Positions 5,926-32,000 of a DNA stretch of 32,000 nt are shown here, piece by piece. The stretch comes from Aliivibrio fischeri ES114 (GTDB lineage: Bacteria > Pseudomonadota > Gammaproteobacteria > Enterobacterales > Vibrionaceae), in assembly GCF_000011805.1 (NCBI RefSeq), contig NC_006841.2; one strand, written 5' to 3'. Within the stretch, counting starts at the first letter, position 1; each line of letters starts with the position of its first letter. The notes under the pieces were generated by a model that ran no database searches, was not told the DNA's origin, and saw only the letters and a list, made by a program, of their open reading frames with translations. Both the position numbers and the translations under genes were made by a program.

Positions 5926-6041
5926 TCGTAACTCCTTATACGTTCCAGTATTGATATCTGAATCAATTAAATTAAGCAAATGAACGAAAAGGAAAAATCG
6001 AGTGAAATCACAGATTAAGTGTTTCAAAGTTAAGAAATTAG

Positions 6042-26413: not shown

Positions 26414-26441
26414 AAAAAGCCTGATAATTCAGGCTTTTTTT
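26414..26441. terminator. bidirectional terminator shared by ddl and the recombinase gene
   Basis: AAAAAGCCTGA-TAAT-TCAGGCTTTTT with A and T runs on either side. It overlaps the recombinase stop codon. Confidence 0.7.
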
Positions 26442-27343
26442 GTTTTAAATACAGACTTTTGTCTCTCAGAACGTTCCGTATTACCAATATATTGGTTTGG
26501 CATTGCAGGACTTACCCAACGACCCATCTCTTGTATCTCGTGAATAGAATAACCACGCTGTGCGAGTTCTTTTGTTGCACCTACACGTGCAGATAAACCT
26601 GAAAAGTTTATTTCAAGGTTCAATAACTCATTTGCTCTACGAAATATACGGTATATAGAAGAATCATTTAAACCGTTAACTGCCACATTTTGATGTCTAT
26701 CTATAGCTCTAAATAAATGACCATCATAGATATTTGAATGTTGAAGCCATCTATTGAGTAACTCGGTTGTTTCTTCTGAAATAGCGTAATAATTCTGATG
26801 GATTTGTACCAAGCATGAATTTGTTTCGTCGTTAAAACAAATATCGTCAAGTTGTAAGTCTCGAAGTTCTCCGCGCTTTAGTAGTAATTCAAACATTAAA
26901 TACCAAATGGCAAGATCACGAATGTCTTTGAGTTCAACTGAGTTGAATAATTGATGTCTGAGTTCATCCAGCATATCAGAGGAAATACCTTCCGTTTGTT
27001 TATTATCATTGACCTTATCGACTCTTATTTTTCCTAGTGCAGACTTTACCTGAATGGATTGTGTTGGGTCTTTATACTCAAATGCCGTATGAATATGAGA
27101 TATCGAAATCAGTGCACGTTTTATCGAAGCAAGCTTTTTCACTTTTGCCTGTTTTTCTATGAAGATGCGTATAGCCGTTGTAGAGGCGGGTAGAGCGATA
27201 ACATTATTCAACTGGCAAAATTCGACAAAATTATTCCAATCATTTTTAAATGAAATAAGACTGTTATTTGAGTATTGCTTTGTTAAACACGTTGCTAGTG
27301 TATCGATATCTAATTGTGCTGATAAAAAGTGTTTTTTGTCCAT
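26429..27343 (-). CDS. Cre-like tyrosine recombinase
   Basis: SGLSARVGATKELAQRGYSIHEIQEMGRWVSPAMPNQYIGN parallels Cre SGHSARVGAARDMARAGVSIPEIMQAGGWTNVNIVMNYIRN. The N-terminal FCQLNN..LPA parallels Cre WCKLNN..FPA (Cre sequence from memory). Confidence 0.8.
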   Translation of the reverse strand: MDKKHFLSAQLDIDTLATCLTKQYSNNSLISFKNDWNNFVEFCQLNNVIALPASTTAIRIFIEKQAKVKKLASIKRALISISHIHTAFEYKDPTQSIQVKSALGKIRVDKVNDNKQTEGISSDMLDELRHQLFNSVELKDIRDLAIWYLMFELLLKRGELRDLQLDDICFNDETNSCLVQIHQNYYAISEETTELLNRWLQHSNIYDGHLFRAIDRHQNVAVNGLNDSSIYRIFRRANELLNLEINFSGLSARVGATKELAQRGYSIHEIQEMGRWVSPAMPNQYIGNTERSERQKSVFKTKKA

Positions 27344-27486: not shown

Positions 27487-27837
27487 ATGAAGAAGACATT
27501 ATACAAAGGATTCTTTATTGAAAACAAAACAGGAATTCCAGATGATTGGAAGGTTTTGATAAGAACTCATGTGTTACACGGTCACTTAAGTGCGGTAAAG
27601 AAAAGCATTGATTGGTGGAATGAAACCGGCACGATTATCGATCCAAAAGAATTTGGTGATATGGGTGAATCAGCGCTTAATGAAAAGCGTAGTCAATTTA
27701 AATCCGAAGAATACAAAGGATTTACCATTAAGAATGATACGGGTGAACCTAAGACTTGGTACTGCTTATATCAAGGAAAATTAGCAAAAGGCTCGTTATC
27801 TGCAATTAAAAGCTTTTTGGATAAACATGAAAAATAA
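27487..27837 (+). CDS. small protein made of two tandem ~40-aa YKGF..N.TG.P..W modules, unknown function
   Basis: Residues 6-43 and 76-113 align at about 50% identity (YKGFFIENKTGIPDDW...LSAVKKSID versus YKGFTIKNDTGEPKTW...LSAIKSFLD). Confidence 0.5.
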   Translation: MKKTLYKGFFIENKTGIPDDWKVLIRTHVLHGHLSAVKKSIDWWNETGTIIDPKEFGDMGESALNEKRSQFKSEEYKGFTIKNDTGEPKTWYCLYQGKLAKGSLSAIKSFLDKHEK

Positions 27838-27876
27838 ATTACAATCTTAATATCTTTAAAAAATCCGAGATTAATT

Positions 27877-28188
27877 ATGTCTTTAGTATATTCAACAGAT
27901 GTTGGCCGAATCAAACAAGAAGAACCAAAAGCAGAACGTCCAAAAGGTGACGGTATTGTACGTATTCAACGTGAAACCAAAGGACGTAAAGGTAAAGGCG
28001 TTTGCGTTGTAACGGGTTTGGATATGGAAGATACTCAGCTTAAGTTGCTTGCAGCTCAACTTAAAAAAGTATGTGGTTGTGGCGGCTCTGTAAAAGATGG
28101 CGACATTGAAATCCAAGGCGATAACCGAGAAAAGATTAAAGACTTTCTAACTAAACAAGGCCACACAGTTAAATTAGCTGGTGGCTAA
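27877..28188 (+). CDS. yciH: SUI1-family translation initiation factor YciH
   Basis: LVYSTDVGRI...RPKGDGIVRIQRETKGRKGKGVCVVTGL...KKVCGCGGSVKDG.IEIQGD...VKLAGG is collinear with E. coli YciH. Confidence 0.9.
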   Translation: MSLVYSTDVGRIKQEEPKAERPKGDGIVRIQRETKGRKGKGVCVVTGLDMEDTQLKLLAAQLKKVCGCGGSVKDGDIEIQGDNREKIKDFLTKQGHTVKLAGG

Positions 28189-28353
28189 TAGAACGTTGTT
28201 AGAGTTAAGCTAATAATCAAACGATGAATACGAAGTATTATTGAATGATTATTAGCTATTTTATGGTAAATAGCCTTATGGTTAAATACGTTGAGAAAGC
28301 ATTAAGAACAAAGGGGAGAATTCGTAATAAGATATTATTTATTACCAAACTCT

Positions 28354-28381
28354 ATTTAACATAAGATATATAATGCGCACT
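28354..28381 (-). other. dif: chromosome dimer resolution site dif (XerC arm, 6-bp centre, XerD arm)
   Basis: The minus strand reads AGTGCGCATTA TATATC TTATGTTAAAT. Both 11-bp arms are identical to V. cholerae dif1 as I recall it. The XerD arm is also identical to E. coli dif. Confidence 0.8.
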
Positions 28382-28438
28382 AGAATGCGGTAAATGAACA
28401 CGAGGAATATGAGGAAATTTATTACGAAGTCTGTTTAT

Positions 28439-28485
28439 AAAAAAACCATGATGGAACACCGCACTCATACTGGTGTCCATCATGG
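28439..28485 (-). terminator. long hairpin plus T-run on the minus strand (terminator and/or ssDNA signal), unit 1
   Basis: CCATGATGGAACACC / GGTGTCCATCATGG arms with loop GCACTCATACT. An A7 run on the plus strand gives T7 after the stem on the minus strand. Confidence 0.55.
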
Positions 28486-28636
28486 GTAATTATCAACACA
28501 AGGCTAGTGGTGTCATTCGATAATTATAAAAAGATTTATTTGGCTAATAAATCTCTATTTATACTCTCACATATTAACATCTATAGTGTTGATGATTATG
28601 AAAAAAAAATAGCAAAAAATGCAATATTGATACGCG

Positions 28637-28720
28637 CTAGCGTATTAATTTAATCTTACGAGCCTTTCTGTCTATTAAATAGAAAAAGCGCCCATTTCTA
28701 TAAATACATTGAACACTCAT
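28637..28720 (-). CDS. candidate 27-aa basic micro-protein (MSVQCIYRNGRFFYLIDRKARKIKLIR), unit 1
   Basis: ATG preceded by GAGG with a 7-nt spacer. The same ORF is conserved in unit 2 and in the prophage. Confidence 0.4.
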   Translation of the reverse strand: MSVQCIYRNGRFFYLIDRKARKIKLIR

Positions 28721-28912
28721 AAACAAACCTCAACACGTTTAAAACCTATCTTTAATGCAGCTCGCAAGCGGCTAAAAATACGCTCACCGCCTCGTTGGGC
28801 CTCTAAAACGTATTTATCAATCAAAAAGGTTATAACCAGAACCTAGAGGATTAATTAATTACCATCTTTGCTTTTTTTAAAGAACATAATCAAATCTTAA
28901 ATTTGATTGTTA

Positions 28913-28940
28913 ACATCACATAATTCATATAATGCGCACT
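28913..28940 (-). other. dif-like junction site (XerC arm plus phage-type centre and degenerate XerD arm)
   Basis: The minus strand reads AGTGCGCATTA TATGAA TTATGTGATGT. Confidence 0.7.
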
Positions 28941-28997
28941 AGAATGTGGTAAATGAACATGAGGAATATGAGGAAATTTATTACGAAGTCTGTTTAT

Positions 28998-29043
28998 AAA
29001 AAAACCATGATGGAACACCATATCCATATGGTGTCCATCATGG
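28998..29043 (-). terminator. the same hairpin, unit 2
   Basis: Same arms as unit 1. The tip is ATAT-CC-ATAT, which lengthens the stem. Confidence 0.55.
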
Positions 29044-29194
29044 GTAATTATCAACACAAGGCTAGTGGTGTCATTCGATAATTATAAAAAGATTTATTTG
29101 GCTAATAAATCTCTATTTATACTCTCACATATTAACATCTATAGTGTTGATGATTATGAAAAAAAAATAGCAAAAAATGCAATATTGATACGCG

Positions 29195-29278
29195 CTAGCG
29201 TATTAATTTAATCTTACGAGCCTTTCTGTCTATTAAATAGAAAAAGCGCCCATTTCTATAAATACATTGAACACTCAT
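29195..29278 (-). CDS. candidate 27-aa basic micro-protein, unit 2
   Basis: Identical to the unit 1 copy. GAGG lies at 29286-29289 (minus strand), 7 nt from the ATG at 29278. Confidence 0.4.
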   Translation of the reverse strand: MSVQCIYRNGRFFYLIDRKARKIKLIR

Positions 29279-29470
29279 AAACAAACCTCAACACGTTTAA
29301 AACCTATCTTTAATGCAGCTCGCAAGCGGCTAAAAATACGCTCACCGCCTCGTTGGGCCTCTAAAACGTATTTATCAATCAAAAAGGTTATAACCAGAAC
29401 CTAGAGGATTAATTAATTACCATCTTTGCTTTTTTTAAAGAACATAATCAAATCTTAAATTTGATTGTTA

Positions 29471-29498
29471 ACATCACATAATTCATATAATGCGCACT
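29471..29498 (-). other. dif-like junction site at the prophage/mini-element boundary
   Basis: The minus strand reads AGTGCGCATTA TATGAA TTATGTGATGT, identical to 28913-28940. Confidence 0.7.
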
Positions 29499-29555
29499 AG
29501 AATGTGGTAAATGAACATGAGGAATATGAGGAAATTTATTACGAAGTCTGTTTAT

Positions 29556-29601
29556 AAAAAAACCATGATGGAACACCATATCCATATGGTGTCCATCATG
29601 G
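29556..29601 (-). terminator. the same hairpin in the prophage, about 300 nt downstream of zot
   Basis: Identical to the unit 2 version. It is the likely terminator of the morphogenesis operon. Confidence 0.6.
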
Positions 29602-29750
29602 GTAATTATCAACACAAAGGTGGTATTACTCGATAATTAAAAAGATTTATCTTTGGGGGTATAAATCTGTATTTAGATTCCCACATATTAGCAACAGTAG
29701 GTTCGTTGATTATGAAAAACAACAGCAAAAAAATGCAATATTGATACGCG

Positions 29751-29831
29751 CTAGCGTATTAATTTAATCTTACGAGCCTTTCTGTCTATCAAATAGAAAA
29801 AACGCCCATTTCTATAAATACATTGAACCAT
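29751..29831 (-). CDS. candidate 26-aa basic micro-protein (MVQCIYRNGRFFYLIDRKARKIKLIR), prophage copy
   Basis: ATG at 29831 preceded by AAGGA (29839-29843) with a 7-nt spacer. An upstream in-frame ATG at 29849 would give 32 aa. The only two nucleotide differences from the mini-element copies are synonymous (CGC/CGT, TTA/TTG). Confidence 0.4.
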   Translation of the reverse strand: MVQCIYRNGRFFYLIDRKARKIKLIR

Positions 29832-29900
29832 TTTGTTATCCTTACTCATTTTTATAGATTAGGTTCGCTACGCTCAGCGAATCCATAAAAATCGAGCTTA

Positions 29901-31085
29901 TTAAAAAACACTCGAGACATTAATCAATGAATCGTCTTTCTCTGATTTAATCGGCGCACCCCGACGAACTGGAGCTATTAAGGCTAACTGTCTTATCTTA
30001 TCAAAGACTAAAAACTCATTATAATCAGGCATTGAAAGCACCGAATAACGGTAACTGTAATTAAAAAGCTCAGTTGGTACAGAGCCTTGCTGTGATTCAA
30101 AATACACCGTTAAGCCTTTGAACTTATCAAAGCCAGTGGCAAAAATGCCCTTGTATTCTAAATCAGGGAATTGATTCACTATCTGATAATTCCCCCCATC
30201 ATAAGTGACGCTGTTATCTTGAAAGCAAATCCCACGAACACAAAAGCTAGGCAGCGAATGACTAGGAACTTGAGTAGAAGTAATGGTGCTTTGCTCATTT
30301 GTTGAAACCTGTTTTTCATAATTTCCCCCTGTAATTAACTCATTATCATAAAGACCATAAAATGAATAAGAGAACAAACTTATAATGAAAAGTGACAGGA
30401 TAACTATTTTTCTGTCTTTCCAGAAAGGCGTACCAGCTAACGTATCCCTAGCCTTGCCCGTTGTTGTGCTCTGATACATTTTAAAAACGTACTTAGGTAC
30501 TTTTTTAATCTCTCTGGTTGTAGCGTGAGAGTCTTGTAAGCCTGAATTGGTAGCATCATGGGTTGTTAAGGTAAATTTAGCTCCTAGACCCATTGTGGCG
30601 CGGTTAAAGTGCCTATAACCAATTTCCGCAGCGTCACGTATCATTCCATGAACCTTGCTAATATTCGGTGTTGTGAGGCAAATATCCCAACCATGGTGAC
30701 GATGCATATCAAATGCTACCTCAAAAGTTTCTGGACGCCCTTCTTCGACTAAATCTGAAGGTGTATCAAGAGCTTTTAGGTTGGCCATAGTTAATTTAGG
30801 CGACCAAATTCGACCGCATTCATCAATAAAAATAAACGCATCTTTAGGTGCCCAATGCCAAAACTTAGCAAGATGAATACGGCCATTAGGATGGTCCGTG
30901 TCTACAAAAATAAAAACAATATCCGATTCATTAATACCAAGGTGTTTAGCGATAACCCCTAGCTTTAAACCACGGATATTAGTAACTATAGGACGGCCTG
31001 ATTTAATCGCAGGAAGAAGCCTAAGCCAGAGTGCTCCCGATGTTTTATAAGAGCCAGGCGCGCCATGATGAACAAAGATACTCAT
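29901..31085 (-). CDS. zot: Zot-like assembly ATPase (inovirus pI)
   Basis: MSIFVHHGAPGSYKTSGALWLRLLPAIKSGRPIVTN... is nearly identical to the N-terminus of V. cholerae Zot as I recall it. Walker A GAPGSYKT and a central TM segment (ILSLFIISLFSYSFYGL). Confidence 0.9.
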   Translation of the reverse strand: MSIFVHHGAPGSYKTSGALWLRLLPAIKSGRPIVTNIRGLKLGVIAKHLGINESDIVFIFVDTDHPNGRIHLAKFWHWAPKDAFIFIDECGRIWSPKLTMANLKALDTPSDLVEEGRPETFEVAFDMHRHHGWDICLTTPNISKVHGMIRDAAEIGYRHFNRATMGLGAKFTLTTHDATNSGLQDSHATTREIKKVPKYVFKMYQSTTTGKARDTLAGTPFWKDRKIVILSLFIISLFSYSFYGLYDNELITGGNYEKQVSTNEQSTITSTQVPSHSLPSFCVRGICFQDNSVTYDGGNYQIVNQFPDLEYKGIFATGFDKFKGLTVYFESQQGSVPTELFNYSYRYSVLSMPDYNEFLVFDKIRQLALIAPVRRGAPIKSEKDDSLINVSSVF

Positions 31086-31366
31086 AATTTAAAAACCTGA
31101 AGTGAAAAGCGAGTTAATAGAGCCTGAATTAAAATAGCAAATACTTTATCTAAACCAAGGTAAAACAGAATGCCACTATATTGTGGCGGTAACATATCTA
31201 TGGCAGATTGAATTTGAGGATAAATAGAAAACATAGAAACAATGTTATTAGATACATCCCAAAAGAATTTGATAATAAATAATTTGCTTTCTAAAAACAT
31301 CTCGGCTAATTCAATAACTAAAAAAGCCACACCATCAACAAACCAAGAGTAAATATAATCCAACAT
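31082..31366 (-). CDS. ace: Ace-like small hydrophobic minor coat protein (pVI analogue)
   Basis: 94-aa hydrophobic protein. Its stop overlaps the zot start by 4 nt, and it occupies the position of CTXphi ace. Confidence 0.65.
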   Translation of the reverse strand: MLDYIYSWFVDGVAFLVIELAEMFLESKLFIIKFFWDVSNNIVSMFSIYPQIQSAIDMLPPQYSGILFYLGLDKVFAILIQALLTRFSLQVFKL

Positions 31367-31372
31367 ATAGCG

Positions 31373-32000
31373 CTACCTTAAAAATATAATCATAGCTGCA
31401 AAGATATAAGCCGCAGCAAGTAATATCTTTCTAATTAAATCCAGATGCTCATTAAATACGGAAAAATCCAAACAGAAATTATAATCAAATGCATCGATAT
31501 AACTACAGAACGAAGGTATGGATGCATGACCAATAAACTCATGCTCTTTTGATTTTGATATTAACGATTCAATTTCATTTTTAAATTTAATTTTCGTTTG
31601 CTCATAACTATTTAATGCAGTTTGAATAGGAATAGAGCACGATTCTTGAGTACAGCTACCCATAACTAAAGAGCCTAATCCGCCTATTTCTGATTTAATT
31701 GAATTAAGAATACTTGTGTAATCTTTTCCACTCCCAGAGCCGCCGCTCCCAGAGTTCATATTGTCATTAATCAGCTTAATCGAAGCGTTAATATCTTGAA
31801 GATTATAATTGATATTTGAATTAGTCATTTCAAGGTTTTGAGAGAGGTTATCAATTTTATCATTAAGCTGAAGAAAGTTTTTATTATCAGAAGAATGAAA
31901 ACCAGAAAGTTGATCGCTCATTTGAATATATCGTTGTGTATTTCTATCCATAGATTCACGTAGATTTACATCTATAGAAGCTGCATATGATAACGTTTTT
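31373..32000 (-). CDS. pIII/OrfU-like minor coat (receptor-binding) protein, N-terminus probably outside the window
   Basis: Gly/Ser linker (SGSGGSGSGK) and a C-terminal hydrophobic anchor (ILLAAAYIFAAMIIFLR). The track starts at ATG 31951, but the frame stays open to position 32000. Confidence 0.6.
   Translation of the reverse strand, partial: KTLSYAASIDVNLRESMDRNTQRYIQMSDQLSGFHSSDNKNFLQLNDKIDNLSQNLEMTNSNINYNLQDINASIKLINDNMNSGSGGSGSGKDYTSILNSIKSEIGGLGSLVMGSCTQESCSIPIQTALNSYEQTKIKFKNEIESLISKSKEHEFIGHASIPSFCSYIDAFDYNFCLDFSVFNEHLDLIRKILLAAAYIFAAMIIFLR

Follow-up and report, generated by a model that had tools for sequence, protein, structure and literature searches.

The right end of a CTX-type filamentous prophage in the squid symbiont Aliivibrio fischeri ES114 and two mini-elements of 559 and 558 bp, which sit between this prophage and the functional chromosomal dif site, carry the same conserved block with a very short minus-strand open reading frame (micro-ORF), and this block may constitute a translated and functional micro-gene, a reading that is put forward here tentatively. 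The sequence is a stretch of 32,000 nucleotides (nt) from contig NC_006841.2 (RefSeq assembly GCF_000011805.1), referred to as the window, and positions are counted from its first letter. The cassette would be an orphan micro-gene for a strongly basic peptide of 26-27 residues, whose translation we infer from its start signals. The best argument for translation is that a Shine-Dalgarno (SD) sequence and, after 7 nt, an ATG are placed in frame by two largely unrelated upstream sequences, one in the mini-elements and the other in the prophage.

Start signals and sequence of the micro-ORF

A preliminary description of this stretch had located one copy of the ORF in each mini-element and one in the prophage, and all three are present on the minus strand (Table 1); the conserved block that contains them occurs only these three times in the window, where no occurrence would be expected. 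The claim that each version has an ATG of its own with an SD sequence 7 nt upstream, GAGG in the mini-elements and AAGGA in the prophage, also held. Such an arrangement, defined as an in-frame ATG within 8 codons, before any stop, and with an SD tetramer 5-10 nt upstream, is offered by only 0.4-0.6% of arbitrary upstream contexts of the window. The homology between mini-element and prophage does end at the start region, as had been noted, with 36 mismatches in the 59 nt upstream of the shared ATGAGT, and a homology that begins at the start codon would be typical of a module boundary at a gene border.

The two versions differ by an in-frame insertion or deletion of 15 nt, already reported in the preliminary description. 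In this case, the prophage has an extra AAGGATAACAAAATG between the shared ATGAGT and GTTCAATG, and this insertion brings both the AAGGA and a second ATG. In the predicted fold of the prophage mRNA, the first AUG (29849) lies hidden within a hairpin, whereas neither the AAGGA nor the second AUG (29831) is paired, which makes the second ATG the more likely start; a ribosome-binding site and a start codon at the right spacing would then be accessible in the predicted transcript. The hairpin that sequesters the first ATG follows the zot stop codon directly and has a 13-bp stem with an inner hairpin. In the 78 nt of the ORF shared by both versions, the only two substitutions are synonymous (CGT/CGC for Arg and TTG/TTA for Leu), as previously described.

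The prophage copy is co-directional with zot, begins 70 nt past the zot stop codon, and lies about 150 nt before a strong hairpin. In the mini-elements, the micro-ORF is the only ORF with credible start signals. A frame of 35 codons that overlaps its start there (ATGA) was considered and set aside as probably no gene, having a TTG start, no SD sequence, and no homologues.

Proposed product and role

The peptide is basic, with 8 Arg or Lys among 27 residues (30%), and has no hydrophobic span; being basic and not hydrophobic, it is not a coat protein, in agreement with the earlier suggestion. A single-sequence AlphaFold2 model of low to moderate confidence has three β strands, with a predicted local distance difference test score that averages 67 and is about 80 over residues 11-20.

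In the proposed arrangement, the prophage micro-ORF would close the rightward structural operon (...ace-zot-microORF) as its last cistron, occupying the slot where CTXphi has ctxAB, and its translation would start at the second AUG with the AAGGA brought by the 15-nt insertion. In the mini-elements, the same cassette would be read behind a different leader, with its own GAGG(T) as SD sequence. The peptide might bind nucleic acid through the small three-stranded β sheet and Lys/Arg-rich end that are predicted for it, and the target could be the right-end module common to the phage and the mini-elements (hairpins, attachment-site side). Its role would then lie in packaging, hitchhiking, or handling of the Xer site and not in the virion. 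Nucleic acid binding on the shared right-end module is a guess prompted by the composition and the model, and any one named function for the peptide is improbable, including the earlier suggestion of a Xer or replication accessory factor; the mini-elements have no phage ori(+). It is a long shot that the 558-bp elements are the smallest protein-coding integrative mobile elements exploiting Xer so far, each composed of a promoter, a micro-gene, a terminator, and a phage attachment site (attP) with no replication functions, and that the peptide, as their only product, aids phage-riding or XerCD manipulation. One conceivable route would be to mimic the basic patch of FtsK-gamma that activates XerD, a patch that the peptide may resemble.

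Homologue searches and points against a micro-gene

Several observations weigh against a translated micro-gene. When the region is shuffled with its dinucleotides preserved, about 20% of the shuffles contain a complete ATG-started ORF of 26 codons or more, and the open frame by itself is therefore little evidence. The substitution argument is weak: with 2 changes it has almost no power, and the probability that both are synonymous by chance is P = 0.04 when all changes are allowed and 0.11 for transitions only. The copies on which purifying selection could be judged number three, of which two are identical, and they differ by 2 substitutions altogether; effectively two independent sequences underlie all the evidence. 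Moreover, both substitutions fall in loops of weak predicted hairpins. Conservation also continues beyond the stop codon, where 0 of 23 nt differ, including the 3' arm of a small hairpin and CAATATTGCATTTTTT. In the mini-elements, promoter-like sites are no commoner than in shuffled sequence.

Also on this side stand the searches for relatives. No match was obtained with the peptide by tblastn against the INPHARED phages (E <= 10), with the mini-element by blastn against the PLSDB plasmids, in IMG/VR scanned for the hairpin, a degenerate ORF pattern, and an inverted-repeat arm unique to the mini-elements, or in metagenome contigs searched for the hairpin pattern. The peptide has 0 matches in Pfam and 0 in PHROGs, and an exact look-up of the 32-aa prophage product finds no record of such a gene in any assembly. 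In ten other A. fischeri strains, the dif2 region is without the block, and no such ORF follows zot in the closest two Zot relatives, on contig L020 (67%) and in CTXphi (62-63%). Against 1.84 billion protein representatives, phmmer returned no homologue and only LVIVD propeller proteins.

The LVIVD matches reach E values down to 1e-18 and are β-propeller proteins of 700-2600 aa in which several weak repeats are summed. As homology, this resemblance was rejected, since it consists of summed repeat scores only and the peptide itself misses the Pfam model; this shows that the scores are best taken as reflecting β-hairpin-like composition and not homology. A single metagenome match to the degenerate ORF pattern (L032) was likewise discarded as a chance match in an unrelated leader region. 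Exact look-ups of three other mini-element ORFs gave no record, and Rfam covariance models had no hit at E <= 1 over 27800-30400.

The nucleotide search of 28340-32000 by blastn against the INPHARED phages matched only zot, ace, and orfU of CTXphi, and a Zot scan of genome contigs matched only V. cholerae. The Zot cluster that includes the ES114 protein (AAW87646) has two further members, P0001 and P0192, whose contigs have the same gene context and likewise end in the block. All contigs retrieved with the ES114 Zot or one of its two variants in the cluster have the gene context of ES114, and L017, the sole contig compared base by base, is essentially ES114-identical, so the Zot-bearing contigs add no divergence. 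In the literature, we found no account of nonreplicative 558-bp elements at dif sites that have a right end in common with a phage, and none of a micro-gene located past zot.

The prophage and a possible cis role of the conserved block

The prophage is of a known kind. A Logan contig (L017) carries the identical full prophage, with rstR-like, rstA (Rep_trans), rstB, cep-like, orfU, DUF2523 (ace-like), and Zot genes; it has neither ctxAB nor xafT, and its termini are rstR and zot. Across zot, ace, and orfU, it is 67% identical to CTXphi in nucleotide sequence. By its gene content, the prophage belongs to the CTX-type integrative mobile elements exploiting Xer (IMEX) with the core gene set of the CTX-II inoviruses, a group whose definition includes the termini rstR and zot (PMC12715192).

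At its left end, two inverted dif-like sites lie about 110 nt apart (L017 5271-5450) and read AGTGCGCATTA-TATCCCATGAT-TTATGTTGAGT ... CCGTAACATAA-ATCGTA-TAATGCGCATT. As single-stranded DNA, this region is predicted to fold into a forked hairpin, the two arms being paired around a 5-nt bulge (z = -4.35). The fold points to a double attP of the CTX type, attP(+), for which a long central region in attP1, one of 5-7 nt in attP2, inverted orientation, and a distance of about 90-110 nt have been given as criteria (PMC4246890). Beside rstR, the RstA (+) origin, ori(+), has the nick hairpin CCCCCGTCTAGTATTACGGGGG (L017 about 5998-6020), identical to that of CTXphi (L033 3567-3588), where the nick falls at CCCCCGTCTAG^TATTACGGGGG (PMC4439123). 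The hairpin is identical in both although their proteins are only about 60-65% identical, and a variant, CCCCCGTTCTGTATTACGGGGG, is found in the relative with 67% Zot identity (L020 6152-6173).

The prophage also has two paralogous modules (L017 5448-5640 and window 29560-29740, minus strand), in each of which ATTGCATTTT is followed by TGCTAAT(A/G)T(G/A)TGGGA..TAAATA.AGATTT and a strong hairpin with a T-run. Module A starts after the micro-ORF, at the ATTGCATTTT that forms the last 12 nt of the block, and module B starts after attP2; in the circular genome, both flank the attP hairpin. A packaging signal and a (-) origin are candidates for this module. The strong hairpin of module A was matched by 0 of 200 shuffles and is likely an intrinsic terminator of the zot operon and/or a hairpin of packaging or (-)origin type.

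The preliminary description had taken the ORF as the conserved unit. The ORF is indeed shared, but it is not the sole unit, because the 23 nt past its stop codon are also unchanged; the block so defined comprises 101 nt with 2 mismatches, compared with 31 mismatches in 109 nt plus 4 gaps in the next 113 columns (Fisher P = 2.5e-8). The alternative that has to be weighed first is that the ORF is incidental and the block acts in cis, as a DNA or RNA element of the right end of the phage, which we consider unlikely, though it is the most serious competitor. On this reading, the mini-elements would have to possess, like the helper phage, any sequence to which phage or host proteins respond. The candidates for such an element are the start of a packaging or (-)origin module, a protein-binding site made up of ATAGA/TCTAT dyads, and a decayed copy of the dif-like site attP2. 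The unchanged nucleotides past the stop codon run into ATTGCATTTT, which is the first part of the module duplicated after attP2, and the ORF 3' end with the small hairpin, which in module A sits where attP2 sits in module B, bears a weak resemblance to attP2 (CGTAAgATtAAAT..TAATaCGC vs CGTAAcATaAAT..TAATgCGC; P = 0.02-0.10); the end of the ORF might thus have descended from a decayed dif-like site. A cis role would also agree with the location of both substitutions in predicted loops, with the nature of the other parts conserved between mini-element and phage (the big hairpin and the XerC-arm flank), which are clearly cis elements, and with a peptide family that has no members elsewhere.

Nonetheless, the block folds no better than shuffled sequences on the phage strand (z = -1.1 and -0.8), and as it is not unusually structured, a purely structural DNA role is not indicated; a strong single-stranded DNA structure was rejected on these scores. 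The stop codon does lie in a conserved hairpin, as had been claimed, but this hairpin is weak, being no stronger than in shuffles (z = -0.6). Moreover, the attP2-like stretch has a central region of 3 nt and cannot be a working Xer site. The block was also rejected as ori(+), since the real nick hairpin of the CTX type adjoins rstR and is absent from the mini-elements. Finally, two independent SD-ATG contexts and an in-frame insertion that bears an SD sequence would be left unexplained.

The mini-elements and the origin of their conserved block

In phage orientation, each mini-element begins with a central region and a degenerate XerD arm, TATGAA-TTATGTGATGT. A unique part of about 215 nt comes next, then the micro-ORF block and a mid region, and after these the big hairpin and, last, the XerC arm. 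The last 340 nt, approximately, are homologous to the prophage right end, the mid region being 72% identical, and the unique part has no match in the complete prophage or in any collection searched, so that an origin of the mini-elements by internal deletion of the prophage was discarded. No ORF above 55 aa is present in them, and none of their sequence resembles any PHROGs phage protein family.

The placement of the prophage and both mini-elements at a Xer site, as originally proposed, is borne out by the XerC arm that they share next to dif2. The junction sites of the mini-elements (28913-28940 and 29471-29498) read AGTGCGCATTA TATGAA TTATGTGATGT, with a perfect XerC arm, a central region that matches dif on the XerC side only (TAT), and a recognizable XerD arm (TTATGT...). 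In the mini-elements, there is no second inverted dif-like site and no other XerC-arm-like site within 2 mismatches. Because of the perfect XerC arm, the identity to dif on the XerC side only, and the absence of a second inverted site, the attachment site of the mini-elements is of the VGJ type, that is, a single double-stranded dif-like attP. They have no rstA, no match to the prophage ig-1/ori, and no ori(+) hairpin, their only matches of this kind being to modules A and B. The mini-elements are neither phages nor replicating satellites, as they have no rolling-circle module (rstA or cri, with ori(+)) like that of RS1 or TLC. A role as RS1-like providers of a second ori(+) was rejected, there being no ori hairpin. 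A long-range pairing of AGCGTATT...CTTGCGAGC with the ORF 3' end, in a fold of the circular form, was also rejected; it is like many AT-rich inverted repeats and is absent from the prophage.

Mini-element 2 is a mosaic that equals mini-element 1 in its unique part, block, and mid region, whereas its last 133 nt, from the hairpin to the XerC arm, are 100% identical to the prophage end; mini-element 1 departs from the prophage there by 6 mismatches and 1 indel. This structure would result if the right ends of the prophage and mini-element 1 underwent an unequal crossover, and a separate second integration is not required. In L017 and two contigs like it, the XerC arm of the prophage directly adjoins the chromosomal dif's central region, the mini-elements being absent. 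Positions 11560-11620 of L017 correspond to window 29476-29500 joined to 28354-28370, the sole difference being TTC to GAT at 29482-29484, and a prophage-type single-nucleotide polymorphism 7 nt from the arm is retained in all three contigs. This suggests either that the mini-elements were lost by an exchange within the 14-nt core, which would be a signature of Xer recombination, or that a pre-integration state is seen. Precise Xer excision would fit this evidence, which comes from short-read assemblies and includes no circular form. In most of the other contigs, the sequence breaks off within the block, as it should where the mini-elements are present. The run numbers suggest ES114 mutation-accumulation lines (PMC5854121), and for V. 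cholerae, IMEX arrays are documented to turn over at a high rate in lines of this kind (PMC6105331).

A second alternative is that the block is neutral: the mini-elements would have come from a related CTX-II phage, from its right end, the block would be nearly identical through recent shared ancestry or recombination, and the frame, the SD-like motifs, and the synonymy would be coincidental in AT-rich DNA. We regard this as rather improbable. Recombination between prophage and mini-element ends is demonstrable in the prophage-type last 133 nt of mini-element 2, an ORF of this length is nothing unusual, the substitution test misses significance for transitions, and the element is confined to one strain. 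However, a block lying between nonhomologous DNA and a mid region of 72% identity would presumably be a poor substrate for gene conversion confined to its 101 nt, and the two SD-ATG contexts, the in-frame indel, and the synonymous-only changes have a joint probability of about 1e-3 or less, with post hoc selection allowed for.

A regulatory role resembling that of an upstream ORF, in which translation but not the peptide would matter and ribosome traffic would toggle the stop-codon hairpin and the downstream structure, would agree with the stop codon in the hairpin loop, the ribosome-binding sites, and the missing protein family, but is very unlikely given that no sense-strand gene follows before the strong terminator, the hairpin is weak, and no alternative terminator/antiterminator pairing was found in the folds examined.

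Comparison with known elements

As a candidate, the micro-gene is strain-restricted and orphan, and known systems parallel its context only in part. The prophage has the gene order rstR, rstA, rstB, cep, orfU, ace, zot of CTXphi and the CTX-II phages (Affertcholeramvirus-like, XerCD at dif). Its Zot is 62-63% identical to that of CTXphi at the protein level, and its folded double attP is of the same type as that of CTXphi, with the identical ori(+) nick hairpin. However, the slot after zot, taken by ctxAB in CTXphi, holds the micro-ORF and no ctxAB in ES114, and neither CTXphi nor the L020 relative has a homologue of the block.

The RS1 satellite (rstR-rstA-rstB-rstC) is a smaller element found in tandem at dif with a CTX-type prophage, with which it shares end sequences, and just before its end repeat it has one small extra gene for the antirepressor RstC (74 aa). 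However, RS1 has 2.7 kb, including rstA and ori(+), and replicates, whereas the mini-elements have 558 bp and neither of the two; no similarity to rstC was found in them. Also, the miniphages of the Ff group, which are defective interfering particles, are tiny derivatives that retain only intergenic cis elements, but these include the (+) origin, which the mini-elements do not have. Functional proteins of about 30 aa do exist in filamentous phages, such as pVII and pIX of Ff (33 and 32 aa), although these are hydrophobic membrane proteins and the ES114 peptide is basic and not hydrophobic. The ES114 genome paper is said to have noted the prophage.

The site of the mini-elements matches the description of the VGJphi-type IMEX, with XerC-only, reversible integration through a single double-stranded attP (PMC4246890), and the absence of both mini-elements from an otherwise ES114-identical assembly, with an apparent exchange within the 14-nt core, would be compatible with this class. 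Nonetheless, VGJphi is a complete phage of 7.5 kb, whereas the mini-elements are devoid of replication and morphogenesis genes. For the idea of a Xer accessory factor, the TLCphi satellite IMEX provides a precedent, with XafT, a small protein dedicated to Xer recombination (PMC6744903, PMC9226527). However, XafT is a DUF3653 protein, to which the peptide shows no similarity in Pfam or PHROGs, and in TLC, where the XerD arm is degenerate and the central region identical to that of dif, XerD acts first in the exchange, which is not so in the mini-elements.

Should the peptide exist, a CTX-family phage of a well-studied symbiosis model strain would gain a micro-protein that is so far unannotated, and the mini-elements would represent a minimal Xer-dependent element with one tiny gene. 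In a genetically tractable host such as ES114, this would be a clean system for the needs of a hitchhiker that exploits a filamentous helper phage together with the host machinery for dimer resolution. Without translation of the ORF, the array would still be informative: it places an irreversible CTX-type prophage beside presumably excisable VGJ-type elements of 558 bp with a common right-end module, one of the mini-element copies apparently stems from an unequal crossover, and both are precisely absent from some ES114-derived assemblies.

The array at dif2 and its neighbors

To the right of dif2, the array consists of mini-element 1, mini-element 2, and the prophage, each of which ends in the same XerC arm, and matches to this arm occur only at 28370-80, 28929-39, and 29487-97. 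The site of the window is dif2, because the identical 28-mer is the sole dif-like site beside yciH in other A. fischeri strains (8 of the 10 compared). In all 10, dif2 is unoccupied. The window's chromosomal genes encode proteins identical to those of ES114 chromosome II, e.g., YciH (AAW87643) and a tyrosine recombinase (AAW87641).

Table 1. Positions of the features of the dif2 array in the window (SD, Shine-Dalgarno sequence)
Feature	Position	Strand	Remarks
Functional chromosomal dif2	28354..28381	-	+ strand ATTTAACATAA-GATATA-TAATGCGCACT (XerD arm, central region, XerC arm); XerC arm from mini-element 1
Mini-element 1, 559 bp	28371..28929	-	Direct-repeat families D1/D2 with 558/559-nt spacing; alignment A1; XerC-arm matches
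Mini-element 2, 558 bp	28930..29487	-	Mosaic by segment identities
Right part of CTX-II-type filamentous prophage	29488..32000	-	Continues past the window edge
zot	29901-31085	-	Prophage gene
ace-like	31082-31366	-	Prophage gene
orfU-like	from 31373	-	Prophage gene
Micro-ORF, mini-element 1	28637..28720	-	27 aa + stop, MSVQCIYRNGRFFYLIDRKARKIKLIR
Micro-ORF, mini-element 2	29195..29278	-	27 aa + stop; identical to the copy of mini-element 1
Micro-ORF, prophage	29751..29849	-	32 aa (MSKDNKMVQC...) from the first ATG at 29849
Micro-ORF, prophage, short form	29751..29831	-	26 aa from the second ATG at 29831
In-frame 15-nt insertion AAGGATAACAAAATG	29829..29843	-	Brings AAGGA SD, 7-nt spacer, and second ATG; alignment A1
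Conserved 101-nt block, prophage	29728..29828	-	78 nt of ORF with stop, 23 nt post-stop
Conserved block, mini-element 2	29172-29272	-	
Conserved block, mini-element 1	28614-28714	-	
SD GAGG (GAGGT), mini-element 1	28728..28731	-	7-nt spacer TTTGTTT, then ATG
SD GAGG, mini-element 2	29286-29289	-	Equivalent of mini-element 1
SD AAGGA, prophage	29839-43	-	7-nt spacer TAACAAA, then ATG
Hairpin after zot stop	29848..29892	-	Inverted repeat I1, RNA fold; 3' arm covers the first ATG
Small hairpin ATACGC-TAGC-GCGTAT	29744..29759	-	TAG in loop; -6.8 kcal/mol as RNA
Small hairpin, mini-element 2	29188-29203	-	
Small hairpin, mini-element 1	28630-28645	-	
Strong 39-nt hairpin, then T7, phage strand	29563..29601	-	DNA fold -16.7 kcal/mol, z = -4.4
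Strong hairpin, mini-element 2	29005-29043	-	
Strong hairpin, mini-element 1	28446-28485	-	
35-codon frame with TTG start	28717-28824, repeated 29275-29382	-	Ends with TGA over the micro-ORF start; probably no gene

In A. fischeri GCA_054880835.1 (L024 10500-13500), about 2.8 kb of unrelated DNA, in which there are ORFs of 138 and 213 aa, is inserted beside dif2, and a strict regular expression found no second XerC-arm motif in it. Finally, the tyrosine recombinase (304 aa, Phage_integrase domain; 26429-27343, minus strand) lies about 1 kb from dif2 and outside the IMEX array, and its position is kept in all A. fischeri strains examined, whether dif2 is occupied or empty.

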